From: Candidatus Krumholzibacteriia bacterium
GTDB taxonomy: Bacteria > Krumholzibacteriota > Krumholzibacteriia > WVZY01
Reading direction: 5' to 3'
NCBI GenBank assembly: GCA_036478295.1
Contig: JAZGDW010000183.1
Coordinates: 1-15,456 of the forward strand
Length of the DNA: 15,456 bases
The position numbers and the translations under genes were made by a program. The first letter of the stretch is position 1. Each line of letters opens with the position of its first letter. Below, piece after piece: positions 2,644 to 14,786 of the stretch. The notes under the pieces are model-generated. The model had not been told where the DNA came from, made no database searches, and saw nothing but the letters and a program-made list of their open reading frames with translations.

Positions 2644-2962
2644 GGAGCCCGGGGCCGGCGGAGTCTTTCCCCCTCACGGGCTGTGGCTGCGCAGTTTGGG
2701 CGGCGGTCCGCACTACTCACGGCAGATGGTGCCGGGCGGCAACAAGTACAGGGGCCAACCGGAAACATCCGTTTTTTTTCTTCACCGCGCGGAAATGGGG
2801 AAATTTTGCACGAACCTTGCATCAAACTCCGCGGACGTTGAGCGACCGGCCGATCCTGGCAGTAGAAGCACTTGATAGATAACTTAATTGTGTTTAACGA
2901 GTTAGGTGTATGGCGTCACCTGGCGCCCCAGTGACATCTTGCAAGACACGCGCTCACAGAAT

Positions 2963-3469
2963 ATGCGCCCGTATGGGTCTGGGCCGAACCGATTTCCACT
3001 CGAGGTGTGGGGTGGCGCATGCGCGCACCGGATTTGGAGTGGGTTCACTTTGATCGAGATTCTTATCGTCCTCGCGATCCTGGGCACCATAGCGGCCTTC
3101 GCGATTCCGGCATACACGCGAGCCGTCGACAACGCCAAAGTTGCCGCGGCCATCGGTGACATCCGTGCGTTGGAAAACGACGTATCGGCCTACGAAGCGG
3201 TGAACGGAAAACCGCCGGACACGCTCGACCAGATCAATCGCGGTGGGTTGGTGGACCCCTGGCAGCGACCATACGAATACTTAGTCTTCAGTGGCAACAA
3301 GGGAACCGCGCGCAAGGACAAGTTTCTCGTGCCGTTGAACTCGACCTATGATCTTTACAGCAGAGGCAAGGACGGGAAAACCAAATTGCCCCTGAACACC
3401 AAGGTGAGCTGGGATGACGTCATCCGTGCCAACGACGGCGCCTACGTGGGTCTGGCTTCGGGTTATTAA
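2963..3469 (+). CDS. Prepilin-type N-terminal cleavage/methylation protein, GspG-like pseudopilin
   Basis: Class III signal G|FTLIEILIVLAILGTIAAFAIP with E5, plus GspG-like motifs DPWQRPYEY and YDLYSRGKDG. The start is uncertain (GTG 2906, ATG 2963 or GTG about 3005). Confidence 0.88.
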   Translation: MRPYGSGPNRFPLEVWGGACAHRIWSGFTLIEILIVLAILGTIAAFAIPAYTRAVDNAKVAAAIGDIRALENDVSAYEAVNGKPPDTLDQINRGGLVDPWQRPYEYLVFSGNKGTARKDKFLVPLNSTYDLYSRGKDGKTKLPLNTKVSWDDVIRANDGAYVGLASGY

Positions 3470-3506
3470 TCCTTGGCAGGTCTCACCCCGGTATAGGAAC
3501 AACATT

Positions 3507-5684
3507 ATGAGAATCGATACGACAATCTTTCGCAGCAAGTTCGCTCAACGGATGTTTGCGCTCTTCATCTTGTGTGCGGCCCTGCCCATGGCGGCCCTGG
3601 CGATTCTTTCATTCAGCCAGGTGACGAAGCAACTCAGTGAGCAGAGCTGGCGGCGACTTCGACAGGCCAGCAAGTCGATGGGCATGGGCATCAACGAGCG
3701 GCTGGTTCTTCTGGAAACCGAAATGAAAATGGTCGTGTGGACTCTGCGTGATGGGTCAACCAACGTCCCTGAACAGGGCGCTGGAAGCTATAGTGAGCGT
3801 CTGGCCCGGCCGTTCAAGGGGGTCGCAGTCGTTTCTAAGGCGGGAGAGTCGAAAAGCCTGTTTGGCAGTGTGCCTGATCTCGGGCAACCGACTTCGGCGG
3901 AATGGGAACATCTCCGATCCGGAGCGACACTTCTTTCCACCTATCATCGCGCCGGCCATGCGCCAGAAATATGCCTGACCATGATTCTGGATCCGGAGCG
4001 GCCCGGGCGGGGCGTCGTGCGTGCCGTGATCGAGTCGGCATTTCTCTGGGGGCTCCCCGGTGAGAACCCGCTGCCACCCTCGATGGAAGTTTGCATCCTG
4101 GACCAATCGAATCGGGTGATCTTCAGCACCCATCCCGTCGAGGGACCATTCCTGGAGCAGGCGGTGACCCACGCCAGGCGATCCCACTCTGGGCGCTTCG
4201 AGTGGGCGTACGACGACGACAAGTATATCGCCAACTACTGGTCCCTATTCCTGAAGGCCGCCTATTACGTCCCCACTTGGACGGTGGTGACCAGCGAATC
4301 CAGGGTCAGTGCGTTCTCTGCCATGGCTGATTTTACGAGGAACTTTGTCTTTGTCCTCGTCATGACGGTGTGGGTGGTGCTGCTTTTGAGCATCGGCCAG
4401 ATCCGGAAGAGGCTGGTTCCCCTGGAGAGGCTCCTCGCCGCCACCCGGGCCATCGCCCGAAGTGACTTTACGAAACGCGTGAGGATAAAGACCGGGGATG
4501 AGTTGGAAGCACTCGCCGACTCGTTCAACAGCATGGCCGAACGCCTTGGCAAGCAGTTCAATGCCTTGACCACCATCGCCGAAATCGACCGGGAAATTCT
4601 CTCGACTCTGGACACGAGAAAAATGGCGGATGCGCTGCTCTACCGTATGGGCGATGTGCTGCCCTGCGATGACATTAGCGTCATTCTGGTGGACAAGCGC
4701 GAGAACAACGTTCTCAAAACCTACGTCCGGACACGGGATTCCCGGGAAGTAACGACGTTTCAGGATGCCGCGTTTACCGAGGAGGAATTGCACAGACTTC
4801 AGGAAAACCCGGAGACCCTGATCCTGGATGGGAACGAGGCCCCGCCACGCTACCTCCAAACGCTGGTCGATGCGGGCTCGAAATCATTCGTGCTCCTGCC
4901 GATCTTCGTCAAGCGCGATTTGAGCGGCATTGTGAGCCTCGGCTCTGCGCGAAGCATAAAGCATAGCGAAGGAGATTTACTCAGGGCACGTCAAGTCGTC
5001 GACCAGGTCGCCGTCGCCCTGTCCAATGCCCGTCTCGTCGACGAGCTTGACGAGCTCAACTGGGGAACGCTTACCGCTCTGGGGTGGACCATCGACGCAA
5101 GGTCTCACTGGACGGCGGGCCACAGCAAGGGAGTCGTCAAGCTGGCCCTGAAACTCGGGCGGGAGTTGAATCTTTCAAAGGAGGAGTTGGACAATTTACA
5201 CCGAGGCGCGTTGCTGCACGACATCGGCAAGATTGGCGTACCATCTGAGATCCTCGACAAACCCGGGAAGCTCACCCCGGAAGAGAGGCGAATCATGCAA
5301 GAACATGTCCTTCACGGTGCGCGTATCCTCGAACCCATTACGGCCTACGCCGGCGTACTCCCCATCGTCCGGCAACATCACGAGTGGTACGACGGATCGG
5401 GATACCCGTTTGGGCTGGTCGGGGAGGAGATAGATCTCAAGGCACGCATTTTCGCCGTTGCCGATTGCTTCGATGCGCTTCTCGCAGATCGGCCATACCG
5501 GCCCTCCGTGGGTCTCGCCGGCGCCATCGACTTCGTCCGCCAGGGAGCAAGGACCCAGTTCGATCCCAGGGTGGTCGAGGCGTTCCTGGCGCTCATGGAG
5601 CGGGAGGCCACCGAGGTGGAAGGCGGCGAGCCAAAGGCGGCGGATCGAGCGGAGCCGGTGTCGGTACGTTCGGAGGAATCCTGA
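3507..5684 (+). CDS. Membrane-bound HD-GYP phosphodiesterase (TM-extracytoplasmic sensor-TM-HAMP-GAF-HD-GYP), probable c-di-GMP hydrolase
   Basis: Two TM helices flank a roughly 270 aa extracytoplasmic region. These are followed by HAMP (PLERLLAATRAIARSDFTKRVRIKTGDELEALADSFNSM), a GAF-like region (LLPIFVKRDLSGIVSLG...QVAVALSNARL) and HD-GYP motifs (GHS, LLHDIGK, HHEWYDGSGYP, DCFDAL...RPYR). ATG 3507 after AGGA is preferred over 3414, which overlaps the pilin gene. Confidence 0.93.
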   Translation: MRIDTTIFRSKFAQRMFALFILCAALPMAALAILSFSQVTKQLSEQSWRRLRQASKSMGMGINERLVLLETEMKMVVWTLRDGSTNVPEQGAGSYSERLARPFKGVAVVSKAGESKSLFGSVPDLGQPTSAEWEHLRSGATLLSTYHRAGHAPEICLTMILDPERPGRGVVRAVIESAFLWGLPGENPLPPSMEVCILDQSNRVIFSTHPVEGPFLEQAVTHARRSHSGRFEWAYDDDKYIANYWSLFLKAAYYVPTWTVVTSESRVSAFSAMADFTRNFVFVLVMTVWVVLLLSIGQIRKRLVPLERLLAATRAIARSDFTKRVRIKTGDELEALADSFNSMAERLGKQFNALTTIAEIDREILSTLDTRKMADALLYRMGDVLPCDDISVILVDKRENNVLKTYVRTRDSREVTTFQDAAFTEEELHRLQENPETLILDGNEAPPRYLQTLVDAGSKSFVLLPIFVKRDLSGIVSLGSARSIKHSEGDLLRARQVVDQVAVALSNARLVDELDELNWGTLTALGWTIDARSHWTAGHSKGVVKLALKLGRELNLSKEELDNLHRGALLHDIGKIGVPSEILDKPGKLTPEERRIMQEHVLHGARILEPITAYAGVLPIVRQHHEWYDGSGYPFGLVGEEIDLKARIFAVADCFDALLADRPYRPSVGLAGAIDFVRQGARTQFDPRVVEAFLALMEREATEVEGGEPKAADRAEPVSVRSEES

Positions 5685-5688
5685 CGAT

Positions 5689-6054
5689 ATGCAAAAGCGA
5701 AAGTTACAGATGGCAGTCATGGCTTTGGTTTTCCTTGCCGGTTGCAAGCAGGCAGTGAGCGTTCCGGACCTGTTGATCGGAGAGTGGAGAACGGAAGCGC
5801 CGAAGTACGCGGATAGGTCTCTGGTGATTACTTCGGATCAGCTTATTTTCGGAACCGGTAACGGAAACGTTGACGTGAAACGTATCGTTAGAGTCGACGA
5901 GCTCCGGGAGGAGCAAGGCATTTCATACACGATTTACTATGGCAATCCCGGGGAGCCCGAATATCGATTGATCCTGTGCTATGAGGAAAGAGGTGGCGGA
6001 GTTATCCGCCTGAAAAATCAGAACCAGATTGAGTGGACCAAAGGAGGACTCTAA
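5689..6054 (+). CDS. Small hypothetical lipoprotein (121 aa)
   Basis: ATG at 5689 with GGAGG at 5672-5676, 4 nt after the HD-GYP stop. The N-terminus MQKRKLQMAVMALVFLAGC has a basic n-region, an h-region and the lipobox LAG-C. The mature part is beta-rich (LIGEW motif). The ORF-track start at 5458 lies inside the HD-GYP gene. Confidence 0.75.
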   Translation: MQKRKLQMAVMALVFLAGCKQAVSVPDLLIGEWRTEAPKYADRSLVITSDQLIFGTGNGNVDVKRIVRVDELREEQGISYTIYYGNPGEPEYRLILCYEERGGGVIRLKNQNQIEWTKGGL

Positions 6055-6723
6055 ATGAGCACGCGAACACCAAGAAGAAGCAAGATAATCATGAACGCTT
6101 TTCAATTGCGCTTGATGATCGTCTACTTGATCCATTTCTTTGCGATCTTGCTGGTATTTGTGGGCATGCTCTTTGTGCCCTTGATGACCAAACTCAACGA
6201 CGGAAACCTGTCAGTGCTCGAGGAGCAAGAGGTGGCAAGACAGTTCCTGGCGCTGCACTCCCAGATGTGGCCGGCGCTGGGAATGGTCCTCGCACTTCTC
6301 ATTCTCCATTCCGTCGTGGTGTCGCACAGAATTGCGGGGCCGATGCAACGGTTAAGGGATGCCTTGAAGACGATTGGGGAAGGCGATCTCACTACCCGGA
6401 TATCGTTTCGTAAGAATGACTATCTGGCGGACACGGCCGCGGATATAAACAAGTTGACCGTATTGCTGGCGGTCAAGGTCACAGAGCTTGAAAAGAACCA
6501 CCGGGCAGCCAGGGCGGCGTTCGCCTATTTGAGACGCTCGCTGGTAGACGGACGCCCGGACCTCACCGAACGGAAATTGGAAGAACTCAATACCCATGTG
6601 ATGGCCATCGAGCAGTGGCTTCAGGAATTTGAGCTTCCCACCGGGGACGCCTGGGACGATGATGCAGATCGGACGGTCGATGACTCGGCGCAGAAAGCTG
6701 AAGAAGTAGAAGTCGAAGCGTAG
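6055..6723 (+). CDS. Two-TM HAMP-domain membrane protein without catalytic output domain
   Basis: RBS AAGGAGG in the end of the upstream gene; the ATG directly follows its TAA. Two hydrophobic helices, HAMP SHRIAGPMQRLRDALKTIGEGDLTTRISFRKNDYLADTAADINKL, a short coiled coil and an acidic tail. Confidence 0.82.
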   Translation: MSTRTPRRSKIIMNAFQLRLMIVYLIHFFAILLVFVGMLFVPLMTKLNDGNLSVLEEQEVARQFLALHSQMWPALGMVLALLILHSVVVSHRIAGPMQRLRDALKTIGEGDLTTRISFRKNDYLADTAADINKLTVLLAVKVTELEKNHRAARAAFAYLRRSLVDGRPDLTERKLEELNTHVMAIEQWLQEFELPTGDAWDDDADRTVDDSAQKAEEVEVEA

Positions 6724-6925
6724 GTACAGACTGGGACGCCGCAGTCCCATTCGGACGGACCCTATCGCGATGTAACGCATCCGCAAACCACAGACCCCTT
6801 TCCATGGTCTGGAGCCGGTGGCGGCAGACGTGCTCACAGAAGAGCACGCCTTTCGGGCCCCTGCCTGTCATACCACCCCATCTCAATTTTTGGGCCTTAG
6901 CGCCTCACCGGCGGGCCGCCTACCT

Positions 6926-6936
6926 TGTGTTATAAT
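6926..6936 (+). promoter_or_regulatory. Extended -10 promoter for the sigma-54 activator gene
   Basis: TGTGT-TATAAT (TATAAT at 6931-6936) is a perfect TRTGnTATAAT element in an AT-rich patch, about 70 nt upstream of ATG 7005. Confidence 0.65.
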
Positions 6937-7004
6937 AAATAACCACAGCGCGTGCGACAACCGTCTTCGTAGTACCTTTCGGATCAGGGAGAACGGCAAG
7001 AGCG

Positions 7005-8447
7005 ATGGATTTCCACAAGTCAAAAGAGCAATCGGCTTATGACGTCGAGTATTATCGCCGGGTCCTCGAAAACATCCCGGCCGAGATCGGTGTCTTCGAT
7101 GCAGAGGGCCGCTTCGTCTTCGATACGCCCACCGGTATAAAGGATCCCTCGGTGCGTGAGTGGGTCATCGGAAAGACCCACCATGACTACGCTCGTAAGA
7201 GAAACCTCCCCGAGTCGTTTGCCGATGAGCGGCAAAAGCACATCGACCGGTGCGTCAGGGAAAACAAAACCATTGAGTTTGAGGAACTCATCATAGACCC
7301 GTCGGGGAACCCACGACACTATATGCGGTGTTTCTGTCCGGTCGAGGACGAGTCGGGCAAGGTCACGCACGTGATCGGCTACGGCCACGAAATCACCGAT
7401 CTGAAGAAAACGGAAGAAGCACTTCGCACTGCTCTGGCCGAAGTCGAGCAGCTGAAAAACCGTCTGGAGGCGGAAAACATCTACCTGCAGGAGGAAATAA
7501 GGCTCGAGCATAATTTCGGAGACATCATCTGCCGGAGCAAGTTGTTCAAGAAAGTGCTGAGGCAGGTGGAACAGGTGGCCGCGACCGATTCCACTGTCCT
7601 GGTGCTGGGCGAGTCCGGCACCGGCAAGGAACTGCTTGCCCGCGCGGTTCATGACATCAGTCCGCGGAGAAACCGGCCCCTGGTCAAGGTGAACTGCGCG
7701 GCGCTCCCCGCGACTCTCATCGAAAGCGAGTTATTCGGCCATGAAAAGGGCGCGTTCACGGGAGCGCTCTCGCGCAGGATAGGCCGCTTCGAACTGGCGG
7801 ATGGCGGCACCATCTTTCTCGATGAGATCGGAGATCTGTCGCTGGAACTGCAGGCGAATCTCCTGCGCGTGCTGCAGGATGGGGAGTTCGAGCGGGTGGG
7901 CGGAACACACACGATAAAAGTAGACGTTCGCATCATCGCCGCAACCAACCGCGATCTCGAACAGGCGGTGGGGGAGGGGGAGTTCAGGGAGGATCTGTTC
8001 TACCGATTGAACGTATTTCCGATCAAGAGTCCCCCACTTCGTGACCGCAAAGAGGACATTCCCCTGCTGGTGAAGCACTTCATCAAGAAGCACGGGGCAA
8101 AAATAGCGACGCGCATCGAAACCGTTCCGAAAAAAGCCATGGACGCCCTGCAGGCCTACCACTGGCCGGGTAACGTGCGCGAACTGGAAAACATCGTCGA
8201 ACGCGCGCTGGTGGTCAGCCGCGGAAAAACGTTCGAGCTGGGAGAGTGGTTTTCAAAAGCATCCGGTCCGCCGAAACCATCCGGTATCGTCACACTCGAA
8301 GAGGGTGAGCGGCAGCATATCAAAGACGCCCTCGACTTGACCGGCTGGCGTGTGAGTGGGGAGAAGGGAGCCGCCAAACTCCTCGGCATCAATCCGAAAA
8401 CGCTTGAATCGCGAATGAGAAAGCTGAACATAGAGCGCGCGCGGTAA
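7005..8447 (+). CDS. PAS-domain sigma-54-dependent transcriptional activator (bacterial enhancer-binding protein, FhlA/HyfR-like)
   Basis: N-terminal PAS/PAC ending [13 protein letters not shown], coiled coil [12 protein letters not shown], Walker [15 protein letters not shown] loop, Walker [18 protein letters not shown] and C-terminal [23 protein letters not shown]. Confidence 0.96.
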
Positions 8448-8450
8448 AAA

Positions 8451-8484
8451 TCCCCGTATTTAGGGAATCCCTGATATTCAGGGA
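8451..8484 (+). promoter_or_regulatory. Tandem palindromes, candidate upstream activating sequences (bEBP binding sites)
   Basis: TCCCCGTATTTAGGGA (8451-8466) and the perfect inverted repeat TCCCTGA-TAT-TCAGGGA (8468-8484), about 100-130 nt upstream of a -24/-12 like element. Confidence 0.6.
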
Positions 8485-8582
8485 AACCTTCCTTCGGTAA
8501 CGGCCCGCGGTTCCACCGGCATCATCTACATAACTCGGCTCTTCAAAAGCGCTTGGACTTATCTCCGGGCGGTTTTTTCTTT

Positions 8583-8598
8583 TGGCACGTTGCTTGTA
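8583..8598 (+). promoter_or_regulatory. Putative sigma-54 (-24/-12) promoter
   Basis: TGGCACG-TTGC-TTGTA versus consensus TGGCACG-N4-TTGCW: perfect -24 box and correct spacing, with -12 GC replaced by GT. It lies between the bEBP gene and thioredoxin. Confidence 0.7.
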
Positions 8599-8659
8599 AT
8601 AGGGTTCAGGCAAATCGCTCACGTGAATCATCCGAACATCGCAGAAGGAGGGTCGAACA

Positions 8660-8989
8660 ATGGAGACCAAAACCACCATCACACTGACCGAGGACAACTT
8701 CGAAGAAGAAGTATTGAACAGCGGGGACATCGTTGTCGTGGACTTCTGGGCGGACTGGTGCGGGCCGTGTCATGTCATCGCGCCCGTTATCGAAGAGCTG
8801 GCCGACGAGTACGAGGGCCGCGTGAAAATCGGCAAGCTGGATACCGAGGCAAGTCCCAAGATCGCGGAGCGGTTCGGGATTCGCTCGATACCCACACTGC
8901 TCTTTTTCAAAGACGGACAGATTGTCGATCAGGCCATTGGCGCGCTGCCGAAGAGTGTCCTGGTCGAAAAACTCAATCAACTGCTGTGA
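8660..8989 (+). CDS. trxA: Thioredoxin
   Basis: 109 aa with VVDFWADWCGPC active site, cis-Pro motif SIPT and GALPK; RBS AAGGAGG upstream. Confidence 0.96.
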   Translation: METKTTITLTEDNFEEEVLNSGDIVVVDFWADWCGPCHVIAPVIEELADEYEGRVKIGKLDTEASPKIAERFGIRSIPTLLFFKDGQIVDQAIGALPKSVLVEKLNQLL

Positions 8990-9082
8990 TGGGTCTTCGC
9001 CACGGCGGGCCCAGCGACGTTCACAAGGAATGCGGAGTGGCCGCATGGAACCAGGGTGTTCAACACTCGAAGGAGGTCCACA

Positions 9083-10117
9083 ATGAAAGCCGCAGTAATG
9101 CATAAGTTCGGAGATACCGACGTACTGAAGTACGAGGACATCGGGACCCCAACTCCGAAGCCGGGGCATATCCTGGTCAAGGTGCTCGGAGCCGGTATCA
9201 ATCGCTTCGACCATTACATACGAGAAGGGTCGGTTACACCGGAGCTCGCGTTTCCCCACATCCTCGGCGCCGACGCCGCCGGTGAGGTGGCCAAACTGGG
9301 TGACGGGGTCACCGGCTTCGAAATCGGCGAGCGAGTGGTCGTGGTTCCCGGTTTTCCCCTCAAGGAGGAAGACTACGGTATCTCACCGGCCGGCACGGCA
9401 CCCAGCTTTACTCTGCCGGGCCTGGGGATCCCGGGTGCCTACGCGCAGTTCATGGAGGCGCCCGCGCGGTTCGTCTTGAAGGACGAGACCGGACTCGAGC
9501 CGCAAGAAGTGGCGTCGCTACCCATGACGCTGGCAACCGCCGTTCGCGCGGTGAAAGTCGTGGGAGAGGTCAAGGCTGGAGACAAGGTGCTGGTCCAGGC
9601 GGGTGCCTCTGGTTCTGGCAGTATGCAGATCCAGGTGGCGAAGGCGCTGGGTGCCGAGGTCGCCACGACGGTTCGCAGCGACGCCAAGGGCGAGTTCGTA
9701 CGGTCGCTCGGTGCGGACCTGGTGATCAACACGCGCAACGAGGATTTCGTGGAGCGCGTGAAGCAATGGACCGGTGGCCGCGGAGCCGACGTGGTCATCG
9801 ATAACGTCGGCGGCGACGTTCTGCCAAAGAGTATCGATGCCGCGCGCACACAAGGCGTCATTGTGGCGTTCGGTTTCACCGCCGGGACCGAGGTCACCTT
9901 CGACATCCGCAACTTCTTCTTCGCCCAGAAGGAGTTGCGAGGTACGATGGCGAGTGACATTTCGGACCTCGAGTGGGGTCTGGCGCAGATCCGCAATGGA
10001 CGTATCAAGCCCACGCTCGACCGGACGCTTCCGCTGAAGGATGCCGCAGAAGCCCATCGCCTGGTCTCGACCAACCAGGTTAGCGGCAGCATCGTGCTGC
10101 TGCCCTGGGCGGAATAG
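9083..10117 (+). CDS. Medium-chain dehydrogenase/reductase, zinc-independent NAD(P)H:quinone oxidoreductase-like
   Basis: ATG 9083 after AAGGAGG. MKAAVMHKFG...P.PKPGHILVKV...GINRFD, PHILGADAAG, nucleotide-binding loop VLVQAGASGSG and LGADLVIN. It has no Zn-binding Cys or GHE motif. Confidence 0.92.
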   Translation: MKAAVMHKFGDTDVLKYEDIGTPTPKPGHILVKVLGAGINRFDHYIREGSVTPELAFPHILGADAAGEVAKLGDGVTGFEIGERVVVVPGFPLKEEDYGISPAGTAPSFTLPGLGIPGAYAQFMEAPARFVLKDETGLEPQEVASLPMTLATAVRAVKVVGEVKAGDKVLVQAGASGSGSMQIQVAKALGAEVATTVRSDAKGEFVRSLGADLVINTRNEDFVERVKQWTGGRGADVVIDNVGGDVLPKSIDAARTQGVIVAFGFTAGTEVTFDIRNFFFAQKELRGTMASDISDLEWGLAQIRNGRIKPTLDRTLPLKDAAEAHRLVSTNQVSGSIVLLPWAE

Positions 10118-10144
10118 CGAACCGCCGACCGAGTTTGGACTGCA

Positions 10145-10164
10145 AAATTGACATTTGTCAATTT
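10145..10164 (+). promoter_or_regulatory. Palindromic operator, FNR/CRP-family-like box overlapping a TTGACA hexamer
   Basis: AAATTGACA-TT-TGTCAATTT is a perfect 9 bp inverted repeat with core TTGAC-N4-GTCAA. Confidence 0.5.
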
Positions 10165-10176
10165 GTGTGATACACC

Positions 10177-10217
10177 TGAAGCCAGGAGGAAGAGCCAAAG
10201 AAAACCTCCTGGCTTCA
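10177..10217. repeat. 13 bp perfect inverted repeat (stem-loop) in the intergenic region before the hydrolase
   Basis: TGAAGCCAGGAGG (10177-10189) and CCTCCTGGCTTCA (10205-10217) with a 15 nt purine-rich loop. Confidence 0.8.
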
Positions 10218-10327
10218 AGCAGTGATGCCAGCCGCACCTTGCTGCGCTCCGCATCTATGATTCAGCTTCCCGAACGCTCTTACCTTCCCCTGAATCTTCA
10301 TCTACCGGTCACAAGGGAGAGATCACC

Positions 10328-11299
10328 ATGAAAACCTTGACCATCTTCGCAATACTGGCCTTCGTGGCCCTCACGGTCAGCGCCGCTTCGCCTGCTATGG
10401 CGTCGGTCCAGATCAATGTCGTGAAGTACAAAACGGTCACCATCGACGGTCTGGAGATTTTTTATCGGGAAGCGGGGAATCCGAACAACCCGACCATTCT
10501 TCTTCTCCACGGTTTCCCGACCTCCTCGCATATGTTTCGTAATCTCATGACCGCGCTGGCCGACGAATTCTATCTTGTTGCGCCGGATTATCCCGGCTTC
10601 GGAAACAGCTCGATGCCCAAGGTGGATGAATTCGAGTATACGTTCGATAACCTGGCGAACGTGGTTGAGAAATTTATCCACGAGTTAGGTCTCAAAAAAT
10701 ACAGCTTGTACCTGATGGATTACGGCGCGCCGGTGGGGTTCCGCATCGCTACCAGGTACCCGGAACGGGTGGAGGCTCTGATCATTCAAAACGGCAACGC
10801 CTACGACGAAGGCCTCCTGGAATTCTGGGATCCGATAAAGAAGTTCTGGAAGGACCGGTCCGACGCCAACGCCGACGCATTGCGTGGTCTCCTGACCCTG
10901 GACGCCACGAAATGGCAGTACACCCACGGTGTGCGCAACGTCGAATCGATCAGTCCGGACAACTGGGGACACGTCCAGCCGCTCCTGGATCGCCCCGGTA
11001 ACCAGGAGATCCAGCTCCAGCTTTTCTACAGCTACGGCTCGAACCCGCCGCTGTATCCCGAGTGGCAGGCGTACCTGCGGAAATTCCAGCCGCCAACGCT
11101 GATTGTCTGGGGTAAAAGCGATCCGATCTTTCCCGCGGAGGGAGCCCATCCCTATAAGCGGGATCTGAAGAAACTCGAGTTCCATCTGCTCGACACTGGT
11201 CATTTCGCTCTGGAAGAGGACGGCGACGTGATCGCGGGGTACATGAGGTCTTTCGTCAAGAAACACGTAGCTGTTTCAGAGGCAAACAGGGCCAATTAG
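10328..11299 (+). CDS. Alpha/beta-fold hydrolase, epoxide hydrolase/haloalkane dehalogenase superfamily, with signal peptide
   Basis: LLLHGFP oxyanion motif, [10 protein letters not shown], Asp nucleophile elbow [10 protein letters not shown], acid in WGKSD and His in TGHFALE. N-terminal Sec-type signal [25 protein letters not shown]. Confidence 0.92.
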
Positions 11300-11330
11300 G
11301 CTCGAACCAGGAGAAAAAAGGAGAACGGTC

Positions 11331-12095
11331 ATGCCAATTACCCCCAAGTCAATTCAGACGCTCGTTCTTGTCGGCTTGCTTGCCGCCAGTGTTTCGATCG
11401 CATTCGGCGGGTTACCCGATCCGGGTATGACCGTCGACCAGACGACCGCGCTGGTAATTACCGATCCACAAAACGATTTCTTGAGCCCGCAAGGCGTCAC
11501 ATGGGGCATAGTCGGCAAGAACGTTACGGCGAACAATACCGTCGAGAACATCGAGACGCTCTTGAAAGCCGCGAAGAAGAAGGGTATTCCGGTCTTCATC
11601 TCTCCGCACTACTACTTCCCAACCGACCACGGCTGGAAGTTCGAAGGAGCCCTCGAAAAGGCGATGCACAGCATGGGTATGTTCGACCGGGCCGGCGCGC
11701 TCAACCTCGATGGCTTCGAGGGCTCGGGAGCCGACTGGCTCGAGCGGTACAAGAAATACATCGAGGACGGCAAGACCGTCATCTCGAATCCGCACAAGGT
11801 CTACGGCCCGGAGAACAACGATCTGATGCTTCAGCTCAGGAAACGGGGGATCGACAAGGTCATCCTGGCTGGAATGTCAGCAAATCTCTGTGTCGAGTCG
11901 CATTTGAGAGAGTTCCTCGAGCGGGGGTTTGAGGTCGCGGTGGTAAAAGACGCGACCGCGGCCGCCCAGGTCCCGGAAGGTGATGGTTACGCGGCTGCGT
12001 TGATCAATTTTCGTTTTATTGCCAACGCCGTTTGGACCACCAGGCAAGCTGAAGACATGATGAAGTCTGCCCGGCTCGCGAGCACAGGGAAGTAA
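11331..12095 (+). CDS. Cysteine hydrolase (isochorismatase/nicotinamidase family) with signal peptide
   Basis: TALVITDPQNDF (Asp), PHKVY (Lys) and ILAGMSANLCVESH (Cys) triad motifs, plus VVKDATA. Hydrophobic N-terminus; RBS AAGGAG. Confidence 0.92.
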   Translation: MPITPKSIQTLVLVGLLAASVSIAFGGLPDPGMTVDQTTALVITDPQNDFLSPQGVTWGIVGKNVTANNTVENIETLLKAAKKKGIPVFISPHYYFPTDHGWKFEGALEKAMHSMGMFDRAGALNLDGFEGSGADWLERYKKYIEDGKTVISNPHKVYGPENNDLMLQLRKRGIDKVILAGMSANLCVESHLREFLERGFEVAVVKDATAAAQVPEGDGYAAALINFRFIANAVWTTRQAEDMMKSARLASTGK

Positions 12096-12224
12096 GCTAC
12101 CGCCAAGCAACGGAGCGCCCCGCCTGCAACGGGGCTCCCGGACGGCGGGGGATGTTGCGACACCCCGTGCCGCCCAGCAAGAAACTCCCAATGTGAAAAA
12201 CGAGGGCTAGGGAAGGAGAGGTAT

Positions 12225-13349
12225 ACGATCGATAATCGTCGGGTGGCAATCGTGGCGGGAGGCCGAACTCCCTTTGTAAGATCCGGCAAGGCCTTCAAAG
12301 ACGTCGGTCCGCTGGGCCTCGCGAAACACGCGGTCATGGGTTTGATCGAGCGGCACGACATCGACCCATCCACGGTTGACACTATTGTCTACGGTGCGGT
12401 GATACCCGAGCCCGGCAAACCAAACCTTGCCCGTGAGATCGTCCTCGAGACCGGACTGCCCAGCAGTATCGAGGCGCAGACGATCTCGTCCTACTGCATT
12501 ACCGGGCTCCGCACAGTGACCGCCGTTGCCGAGGCGATCGCCCTCGGTCGTATCGATGCCGGGATCGCCGGCGGGGTCGATTGGCTCTCGGGCGCGAATC
12601 CGGACACCTTCAGAGAGCCATCGACAGGGCTCTCTATGGGCGAACACACCGAGATCACGCGCAGGGAATGGGACATCCCGCGCGAGCGACAGGACGAAAT
12701 CGCTCTGGCCAGTCACCGGAACGCCGTTGCCGCCCGTGACAAACTCGCCGATGAGATCTTTCCGCTGGAAGGAATCCAACATGACACCGGGCCGCGCAAT
12801 GACACCTCGCTCGCCGCTCTTGCCGCCCTACGACCGGTTTTCGAAGAAAACGGCATGCTCACCGCCGGCAATTCGTCACCGATAACGGACGGCGCCTCTG
12901 CGGTATGTCTCATGAGTGAGGAAAAGGCTCTCGCCGGGAACCGGCAGCCACTGGCATTCATTCGCGCCATGCAGTACGCGGCGATCGATCCCGCGGAAGG
13001 ATTGTTAATGGCACCGTCTATCGCCGTGCCACGCCTGCTAGAGCACACTGGCCTTGCGCTCGCGCAATTCGACCTCATCGAAATCCACGAGGCTTTCGCA
13101 GCCCAGGTCCTGGCCAACGCCAAGGCCTGGGACCAGGGTTGGAAAGGTGAGCCCACTGGCGCTGTCGACTGGGACCGGGTGAACCTTAACGGCAGCTCCC
13201 TCGCTATCGGCCATCCCTGGTCAGCCACCGGTGGCCGCATTCTTACCACGCTGGCGTACGAGATGGCGCGCCGCGATATTAGAAGGGGCCTGGTGAGTAT
13301 TTGTGCGGCCGGTGGAATGGCCGGCGCATTCGTTTTAGAGAGGGCGTAG
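12225..13349 (+). CDS. Acetyl-CoA C-acyltransferase (thiolase), FadI/trifunctional-enzyme-beta-like
   Basis: VAIVAGGRTPF, PNLAREIVL, nucleophile Cys in SSYCITG, TAGNSSPITDGASA, EIHEAFAAQVL (HEAF type), GHPWSATG and SICAAGG. The start is ambiguous: GTG 12243 in the ORF track, or ACG 12225 positioned 6 nt after AAGGAG. Confidence 0.9.
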   Translation, partial: TIDNRRVAIVAGGRTPFVRSGKAFKDVGPLGLAKHAVMGLIERHDIDPSTVDTIVYGAVIPEPGKPNLAREIVLETGLPSSIEAQTISSYCITGLRTVTAVAEAIALGRIDAGIAGGVDWLSGANPDTFREPSTGLSMGEHTEITRREWDIPRERQDEIALASHRNAVAARDKLADEIFPLEGIQHDTGPRNDTSLAALAALRPVFEENGMLTAGNSSPITDGASAVCLMSEEKALAGNRQPLAFIRAMQYAAIDPAEGLLMAPSIAVPRLLEHTGLALAQFDLIEIHEAFAAQVLANAKAWDQGWKGEPTGAVDWDRVNLNGSSLAIGHPWSATGGRILTTLAYEMARRDIRRGLVSICAAGGMAGAFVLERA

Positions 13350-13364
13350 AGGAAGGAGGTAGAC

Positions 13365-13793
13365 ATGGCTTCGACCGTAGTTGTCCGAAGCGTGGCAGGG
13401 CAGCGGTTTACCCAGGAAGTTGAGGCTGGAATACACAAACTCTTTGCTGACGAGCCGGAATCCTATGGGGGCTCCGAACGCGGACCAGGGCCCTACGAAT
13501 ACTTGCTCGCCGCGCTTGGAACCTGAACGTCCATGACACTTCGCTTGTATGCGGAGAGGAAAGGATTGCCGCTGGAGAGCGTTGAGGTGCGGCTTCGGCA
13601 TGCACGGATTCACGCGAAGGATTGCGAGGACTGTGAAACGAAAGAGGGGATGCTCGACGAGATAAGTAGTGAAATCCGGTTGGAGGGGGACCTCGATGAG
13701 ACCCAGAGAAAGCAGCTTATAGAGGTAGCCGCCATGTGCCCGGTACACCGGACTCTCACTAGCGAGATCAAGATCCGAACAACTGAGATCTAG
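13365..13793 (+). CDS. OsmC/Ohr-family (YhfA-like) protein, probable selenoprotein (Sec at codon 54, TGA 13524-13526)
   Basis: RBS AAGGAGGT at 13353-13360 and ATG at 13365. The frame reads ...[45 protein letters not shown]...AAMCPVHRTL. The TGA falls at the Cys of the OsmC LLAALGxCTxMT motif; the frame is continuous over 142 codons and ends TAG TAG. Confidence 0.88.
13527..13560 (+). promoter_or_regulatory. Candidate bacterial SECIS element
   Basis: Stem CTTCGC (13539-13544) / GCGGAG (13551-13556) with G-containing loop TTGTAT starting 19 nt after the UGA. A lower stem TCC (13530-13532) / GGA (13558-13560) is possible. Confidence 0.6.
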
Positions 13794-13835
13794 TAGATGT
13801 AACTGGTTCGGATAGTGGGCGCGCACGGCGGCGAG

Positions 13836-14585
13836 CTATTTTTCGCGGAAGGCGTTCGCTATCGCGACGACTTCTGCCTTGCCCAGCTGGTTGAGATGGA
13901 CGCGTTGTCCGGCGAGTATCTCTTCGATTTCCGATTTGAACTGCTTGAGCTCTTTTTTCTGGGTGAGGTCTTTTCCATTCTTCGTGGAGTAGCCGCAGTA
14001 GTAGTGCCCGTCGATACCGTTGAGCCGCCAGCTGAATTCGGGTTCCACACCGAGTACCACCGCTTTCTCTTTCGAATGCACGAACTGGGCGCCCTTTTTG
14101 ATCTTCTCGTAGAAGAGCCGTTCGCCCTCTTTGGCGGCCTCGCTTAGAATGCGCCTGGCAAGGCCTCGCAGGTGGATGAGTCTCGGTGCCGCCGCGAGTT
14201 TGTCGATCAGATAAAGGGCGAACTCGTTTTTCGCGATGCCCCGGGGAATGGCGACCAGCGCCATGGTCGTGTCGATCGAGAAAAGATCCCGGTGCCCTTG
14301 CTTCTTGATACCGATGCCGCACTTGCGGATGACATCGGGCAGGTCATCCAGCTTCTTCTTCAGCGTGGTCGCAAAACGCCCGCCGGGTTTGAGGGCGCCC
14401 CGGGCGTCCTCGAAAAGCTTGCGTTTTGCCCTGTATTTTCCAAAAAACCATCTGCCGGGGGTCCGGCGCAGGACGTCTTCCAGCACGGTCTGCCCATCGC
14501 GGGCAATCCATTCCTTGAACAGGTCCTGAGTCATAAGTTGTTTAACGACTTTGAATTCTTGTCCTGTCCATTTGAGTGCGGCCAT
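13836..14585 (-). CDS. Hypothetical Lys/Arg-rich soluble protein (about 249 aa)
   Basis: Long ORF with protein-like composition from MAALKWTGQEF (ATG 14585, GGGAG at 14596-14600). The longer ORF-track N-terminus (to 14777) is Pro/Arg-rich and starts inside a terminator-like hairpin. No family recognised. Confidence 0.65.
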   Translation of the reverse strand: MAALKWTGQEFKVVKQLMTQDLFKEWIARDGQTVLEDVLRRTPGRWFFGKYRAKRKLFEDARGALKPGGRFATTLKKKLDDLPDVIRKCGIGIKKQGHRDLFSIDTTMALVAIPRGIAKNEFALYLIDKLAAAPRLIHLRGLARRILSEAAKEGERLFYEKIKKGAQFVHSKEKAVVLGVEPEFSWRLNGIDGHYYCGYSTKNGKDLTQKKELKQFKSEIEEILAGQRVHLNQLGKAEVVAIANAFREK

Positions 14586-14757
14586 GGCTGGTAGACTCCC
14601 CGAGTGGTGGTCAATGCGGTCGCGAAGATATCGCTGGGGGTGTCGTCGCACGCCCCAGGTTGGCGGTCCGGAGGATGCAAGAACCGGTTCCTTTGGCTCT
14701 GCGGGTGGCGGATATTCCCGCGGGCGACCGGTTGAAGGCCGCCGCAGCAGGGCACGG

Positions 14758-14786
14758 CAAAGGGGCTCCCGCTGCACGGGAGCCCC
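14758..14786 (-). terminator. Putative intrinsic terminator of the beta-barrel gene
   Basis: Perfect 10 bp GC stem GGGGCTCCCG (14762-14771) / CGGGAGCCCC (14777-14786) with a 5 nt loop, followed on the minus strand by a short TTTG. It is about 40 nt after the stop at 14828. Confidence 0.55.

Follow-up and report, generated by a model that had tools for sequence, protein, structure and literature searches.

An OsmC-fold gene of the OsmC-esterase domain type with an in-frame UGA that very probably encodes selenocysteine

The OsmC-fold gene near the 3' end of the window (the whole 15,456-nucleotide stretch of DNA that was analysed) very probably encodes one selenoprotein of 142 residues, in which a UGA is read as selenocysteine (Sec) by means of the adjacent hairpin and whose product is likely a thiol-dependent redox enzyme. 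The recoding of the UGA at codon 54 as Sec is, judging from the comparison of related genes, almost certain. By its sequence the gene is a member of the CxxC-bearing OsmC domain type known from the OsmC-esterases and not of the published OsmC-like selenoprotein family. Selenium-containing OsmC proteins as such have long been predicted, the Sec form of the esterase-type domain being apparently uncatalogued; we regard it as a sound extension of a theme already known and not as a new kind of system. The features are collected in Table 1.

Table 1. Features of the OsmC-fold gene and its surroundings (window coordinates; residue numbers refer to the read-through protein)
Feature	Position	Strand	Remark
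Upstream run: thioredoxin, quinone-oxidoreductase-like, alpha/beta hydrolase, isochorismatase-like, thiolase	8660..13349	+	same strand
Shine-Dalgarno AGGAGG	13354..13359	+	5 nt upstream of ATG 13365
OsmC-fold gene, 142 aa with one TGA read through	13365..13793	+	
Tyr44, in the place of the Ohr/OsmC catalytic Glu	13494..13496	+	10 residues before the first Cys; invariant, 75/75
In-frame TGA, codon 54, likely Sec54	13524..13526	+	at the first conserved OsmC Cys
Predicted SECIS	13529..13566	+	folding energy -13.4 kcal/mol; conserved in relatives
Predicted SECIS lower stem	13529-13532/13563-13566	+	weaker
Predicted SECIS upper stem, 6 bp	13539-13544/13551-13556	+	starts 13 nt after UGA; each pair probability at least 0.99
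Predicted SECIS loop UUGUAU	13545-13550	+	UGUA closed by U.U; G third
Cys87-x-x-Cys90	13623..13634	+	loop between strands 70-83 and 96-108 (predicted model)
Cys125 (CPVHR), second conserved Cys	13737..13739	+	invariant; Cys in 47/47 Sec loci covering it

The frame opened by the ATG at 13365 runs through 53 codons, the TGA and 88 more codons to a double stop, TAG TAG, at 13791-13796; the ribosome binding site, start, in-frame TGA and continued frame described in an earlier note on this DNA are all present in the sequence. An AAGGAG at similar spacing precedes the start in all seven of the other genome Sec genes listed. The read-through protein matches the Pfam OsmC family (PF02566) with 68.8 bits over residues 36-139, the downstream 86-aa piece reaches 36.8 bits, and the first 53 residues alone have no Pfam match; the gene is the sole PF02566 match in the genome. 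As the earlier note had anticipated, the product is stored in truncated form: the protein collection (source NCBI) contains the exact 86-aa downstream piece, which lacks the key residue, and the full 142-aa protein is absent from it. The gene also escapes the existing NCBIfam model.

This 86-aa call, which has four cluster members in the database, and the ATG found 7 nt after the TGA would agree with a split gene, in which a 53-aa and an 86-aa protein are made and translation restarts at Met57. We consider such an arrangement scarcely credible, given that codon 57 is not ATG in 3/8 genome and 15/47 metagenome Sec genes, and that the break would fall in the middle of a helix (residues 43-66 of the predicted model) and delete the conserved Cys.

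The UGA aligns with the conserved OsmC Cys, as had been proposed. Among the best 80 genome loci, codon 54 is TGC or TGT in 73 and TGA in 7, the latter being 74 to 79% identical and labelled as delta- and gammaproteobacteria, Acidobacteriota, Latescibacterota and the Olavius symbiont Delta 3. Three phylum samples were added. The first (301 genomes) gave 41 matches, four with TGA, which comprise one repeat, two new loci and one TGA at a Trp codon that was dropped; the second (301 genomes) gave 12 matches with one TGA, a repeat; and the third (168 genomes) gave 13 matches, with one repeat and one new locus among its two TGA genes. Altogether, 10 other genomes, which belong to several phyla, have TGA at codon 54. 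A DNA pattern search yielded 47 metagenome loci with TGA, a set that is biased, as the pattern contained the window-type hairpin, and one of whose members repeats a genome locus. Each of the 56 Sec loci included has a single stop within the aligned region. In comparisons with six Sec genes from genomes, pN/pS is 0.14/0.53 upstream of the TGA and 0.15/0.68 downstream of the hairpin, values by which both halves of the gene are under purifying selection.

The dropped TGA (L266 in genome G543) sits at a Trp codon and its C-terminus is disturbed, and it was removed from the Sec count. Another locus, L063, has a frame shift just before the second Cys; we read both as errors or decay.

A nonsense mutation, a pseudogene or an assembly error at a Cys codon is an extremely improbable explanation for the window. 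The change from TGC or TGT to TGA takes a single step, and the G543 case looks like a real nonsense TGA. In addition, the TGA form occurs in none of 60 close relatives of the window's genome; the same-genus genome has no match and the same-family genomes hold only Cys or distant forms. However, the same TGA recurs in the 10 other genomes, without further stops and with purifying selection on both sides. It also recurs in an assembled contig (contig 29 of run X6, from the marine-sediment runs), which may derive from the window's own source sample; this contig spans the site and differs from the window by one letter, at position 13541. All aligned contigs, and thus all depth there, show C at this position, so that a stem pair that is U-G in the window is C-G there. 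Since this must be the sole differing letter of contig 29, the contig keeps both the TGA and the TTG. The absence of the TGA form from the 60 close relatives and of any match from the same-genus genome rather suggests that the gene is patchily distributed and that lateral movement is likely.

The genome, which is 90.9% complete, encodes the machinery for Sec insertion that the earlier note had asked about: selA (476 bits), selB (384 bits) and a tRNA-Sec (68 bits, anticodon TCA) all score above their cut-offs, and selD is represented by its N-terminus, which is cut by a contig end, hence under the cut-off, and carries an in-frame TGA of its own. The other TGA genomes agree with this picture, selB being present in 10/10 of them vs 6/11 Cys-type control genomes, and selA in 8/9 of those tested; selB is, however, frequent in Cys-type genomes too. 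A global reassignment of TGA, which the earlier note had already argued against, is ruled out: TGA is the commonest stop in the genome (549/1312 long ORFs), and the permease, HD-GYP and thioredoxin genes in the window all terminate with it. The high number of TGA stops also argues against the UGA being decoded as Cys or Trp and not as Sec, a reading that we regard as very unlikely. One database relative (P0006) has Trp at position 54 and the window's loop is imperfect, but TGG never occurs at the Cys54 position among the best 80 genome loci, and Sec machinery and a conserved hairpin are present. Some database relatives speak against recoding: the nearest one (82%) carries Arg at this position, and several at 74 to 79% identity have Cys.

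A rough genome-wide scan gave 838 read-through candidates, from which 13 were chosen by motif. Ten of these 13 have Pfam matches. Read-through genes of the genome match known selenoprotein families and have G-U or G-G loops; therefore, the organism seems to make wide use of Sec. The read-through genes L253-L263 lie on contigs C109, C308, C98, C87, C169, C120, C129, C110, C155, C206 and C220 of the window's genome (G000). They comprise a glutathione peroxidase, a MerT-HMA fusion, a DUF3179, a CMD/AhpD-like, a YHS-domain, two DUF2938, an AhpC-TSA, a MerB-like and a glutaredoxin gene, and one unnamed protein with U-G-C-P. A further ORF of about 57 aa (L264, G000:C132:3353-3532, minus strand) has no Pfam match, contains a hydrophobic stretch and the motif G-U-G-P-T-S-C, and has a strong hairpin of -19.9 kcal/mol; we describe it as a candidate small membrane selenoprotein.

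The predicted hairpin folds as CUUCGC-UUGUAU-GCGGAG, in line with the stem and loop reported in the earlier note. By itself it is modestly beyond chance, arising in 3.2% of 20,000 random synonymous recodings. The case for a SECIS thus rests on the comparative data, which are strong, while the single hairpin is weak evidence. The bacterial SECIS model set out in PMC13188914 admits loops of 3 to 9 nt, stems of 4 to 16 bp, distances of 16 to 37 nt from the UGA and energies of at most -7.5 kcal/mol, and the window hairpin lies within these limits (loop 6, stem 6, spacing 18, -13.4 kcal/mol). The strict form of the model, according to that paper, wants the G at loop position 1 or 2. The remark that the loop is not a textbook SECIS accordingly stands for the G, which is third in the predicted loop, but not for size, spacing and energy, which fit. 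The G is second in 7/7 of the closest genome relatives, where a UGUA loop is closed by A-U; the window has a 6-nt loop with the G third because one A-to-U change (Met-to-Leu) opens this closing pair to U.U. The same U.U pair is found in one metagenome locus, L163.

Relatives keep both the TGA and the hairpin, and none of the outcomes that the earlier note had named as refuting turned up. At least five pairs together with the G-U at the window's register are present in 8/10 TGA genes vs 7/122 Cys genes, and the exact core CGC-ATG-TAT-GCG-G is present in 7/7 Sec genes vs 2/37 Cys genes with Met61. In Sec gene pairs, pS at codons 59-64 is 0.17 vs 0.54 to 0.59 elsewhere; in Cys gene pairs it is 0.52 vs 0.59 elsewhere. 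We give no p-value for the conservation of the hairpin because the Sec genes are kin and the counts are not independent. In a more distant group of three Sec genes (L215, L217 and L271) the stem is a different one, NNCGCGC-UGUAY-GCGCGNN, in which the spacing between the UGA and the G-U is unchanged and one U-A/C-G exchange occurs. This second stem type comes at the cost of amino acid changes, the residues being I/V/A-A-L-Y-A-R.

OsmC-like selenoproteins have been predicted since 2005, in the Sargasso Sea data and then in the GOS survey (PMC1088965 and PMC2398784). They form a single entry, with the motif UxxT, among the 119 families in PMC13188914, and are also listed in PMC9312934. The published family (COG1765, NCBIfam NF041052) shares with the window protein the PF02566 fold, a Sec at the first Cys, where the positions align, and a hairpin directly 3' of the UGA. 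In contrast, its published sequences that were examined read GIGF-U-LLT and GCFAE and are without a CxxC, whereas the window protein has ALGT-U-TSMT, the CxxC and CPVHR; the UxxT motif (F-U-L-L-T) is replaced by T-U-T-S-M-T. The window protein scores 75.8 bits against NF041052, where the cut-off is 95, and the eight relatives tested score 58.9 to 67.7 bits, all under the cut-off as well; five Sec relatives lie at 60.7 to 67.7 bits. A member of NF041052 from genome G249 scores 156.8 bits, and its alignment with the window protein covers only 62 residues, at 34%. Membership in NF041052 was therefore rejected. The earlier note's reading of a Sec at the first OsmC Cys is supported, with the refinement that the gene is not of the published family. 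Genome G249 has two TGA-bearing NF041052 members (L199 and L210), which serve here as stand-ins for the published family, and 201 genomes of the window's own phylum gave no match above its cut-off. A search of the sequence files from the Sargasso and GOS surveys found none of the window protein's motifs.

The OsmC domain of the OsmC-esterases (EstO/EstRM, "bifunctional alpha/beta hydrolase/OsmC family protein", 9wo1) instead shares ADEP..GG, LG-C-T-MT, H-KDC-DC and CPVH with the window protein. The nearest solved chain by sequence is the C-terminal domain of PDB 9wo1 (E 7e-37), a 400-aa chain named OsmC, which was not among the structures returned by the fold search. Described OsmC-esterases consist of a Cys-type OsmC domain joined to an esterase, and many Cys relatives carry the same domain at the end of hydrolase fusions of about 400 aa, whereas the window domain stands alone and has a TGA for the first Cys: only 58 open codons lie upstream of the TGA, which leaves no N-terminal alpha/beta hydrolase. 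The CxxC is found in 54/54 Sec and 121/122 Cys loci that cover the site. The HAKDCEDC motif, which the earlier note called an extra, is thus not specific to the Sec form, and the authors of the OsmC-esterase study had noted the extra CXXC and called the OsmC domain enigmatic (PMC5113044). In the literature and lists searched there is no report of a Sec form of this domain; further supplements or BSepDB, whose tblastn used E 0.01, may include members under "OsmC-like", and the one BSepDB supplement searched is without OsmC.

The AlphaFold2 model, with Cys placed at position 54, has a pLDDT of 92, and its fold search matches OsmC, Ohr and Ohr-like structures. The best TM-scores (0.75 to 0.78) are to the YhfA/Ohr-like entries 2pn2, 2onf, 1lql and 1ml8, a loose group, with 13 to 20% identity between these structures and the window protein. 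As in the window protein, the two Cys positions are kept in this group and the Glu is missing (PMC5384416 and PMC8945050); its members are described in PMC8945050 and PMC5962072 as uncharacterised in function and without known activity. The Ohr/OsmC peroxidases share the fold (TM about 0.6 to 0.7) and two redox residues 71 apart, but TIGR03562 gives the window protein 20.8 bits against 85.8. Their catalytic Glu, which can be located by the Glu51/Cys61 spacing (PMC5962072) and which Ohr and OsmC need (PMC5384416), is replaced by Tyr44, and the window protein adds the CxxC. Tyr is found at position 44 in 122/122 Cys loci and 55/56 Sec loci. No Arg before residue 54 reaches 90% conservation; Arg39 is kept in the eight main-clade genome Sec genes, but not in the fused Sec forms.

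As the putative function of the protein, we lean slightly towards a thiol-dependent peroxidase or oxidoreductase cycle. To insert Sec54, SelB and its Sec-tRNA would recognise the G-U loop some 19 nt past the UGA; the residue, which occupies the peroxidatic position, would then react with an oxidant, the most plausible being an organic hydroperoxide. A Se-S bond would then form between Sec54 and Cys125 as the resolving residue, and re-reduction could proceed via the Cys87-x-x-Cys90 loop with thioredoxin or a lipoyl carrier as the electron source. Being ionised at neutral pH, selenium may stand in for the missing activation by Glu. We infer the insertion of Sec, a dimer, the substrate, the role of the CxxC and the reductant. 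Of the four cysteines, one shows a conserved exchange for Sec, which suggests that residue 54 is the working redox centre. As the protein lacks the Glu of Ohr/OsmC, and as a Cys member has no peroxidase activity in the assays described in PMC5113044, we only infer that this residue is catalytic.

The Cys member, EstRM, was inactive in its full-length form towards H2O2 and cumene hydroperoxide when assayed with DTT, removal of its OsmC domain raises esterase activity, and the full-length enzyme is more metal-sensitive (PMC5113044). Together with the absent Glu and the nearly invariant CxxC and H79/H128, these observations lend an appreciable minority probability to a selenoprotein that is no peroxidase, but a redox or metal sensor or a disulfide- or persulfide-exchange module, with a metal on the CxxC and a nearby His, which would gate the esterase in fusions. 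Against a sensor speaks that the Sec sits at the peroxidatic position, there being no TGA at Cys87, Cys90 or Cys125 in the loci checked. Moreover, most Sec forms have no attached esterase, and genes for redox or detoxification functions often lie next to them. With Sec and Cys forms occurring naturally, both alone and fused, the family lends itself to a direct test of the enigmatic OsmC domain.

Five metagenome loci (L143, L157, L158, L161 and L176) contain the TGA and the same hairpin inside a hydrolase-OsmC fusion of about 410 aa with an intact GHSLGG motif and are candidate esterase-selenoprotein fusions. In the trees, the Sec genes fall into three groups and 5 to 6 Sec/Cys changes are needed; a single Sec origin is not rejected (p-AU 0.30, in a quick tree with 52 of 123 rows). 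Tentatively, and with some doubt on our part, the CxxC-bearing OsmC domain may have gained Sec more than once, namely in the stand-alone clade, the esterase fusions and the clade with the other SECIS stem, giving esterase-selenoenzyme fusions and a Sec/Cys-CxxC relay peroxidase without the Arg-Glu pair of Ohr/OsmC. If this were true, the long-unassigned OsmC domain would be identified as a catalytic redox unit. In one genome (G066), the stand-alone Sec form occurs together with a hydrolase fusion of the Cys type (L241 and L252).

The thiolase gene ends 15 nt before the ATG of the OsmC-fold gene, and homologues of the hydrolase, isochorismatase and thiolase recur beside a few Sec genes. Across 56 loci, the neighbour clusters, whose labels were read by eye from the sequences and not from a profile scan, include MOSC-type (9), short-chain dehydrogenase (7), alpha/beta hydrolase (5), isochorismatase (4), WrbA-type (4), pirin-type (3) and thiolase (2) genes. 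As the neighbours vary among the 56 loci, a conserved operon was rejected. A promoter scan of positions 8400-14000 found none, and terminators are at chance level. On the minus strand, a 313-aa ORF (13836-14777) converges on the OsmC-fold gene; it has no Pfam match and a weak NadC match (19 bits). The remainder of the window comprises ABC exporter genes on the minus strand (1-2713) and, at 2906-8447, a series made up of a pilin-like ORF, a HAMP-GAF-HD-GYP protein, a membrane ORF and a PAS sigma-54 activator.
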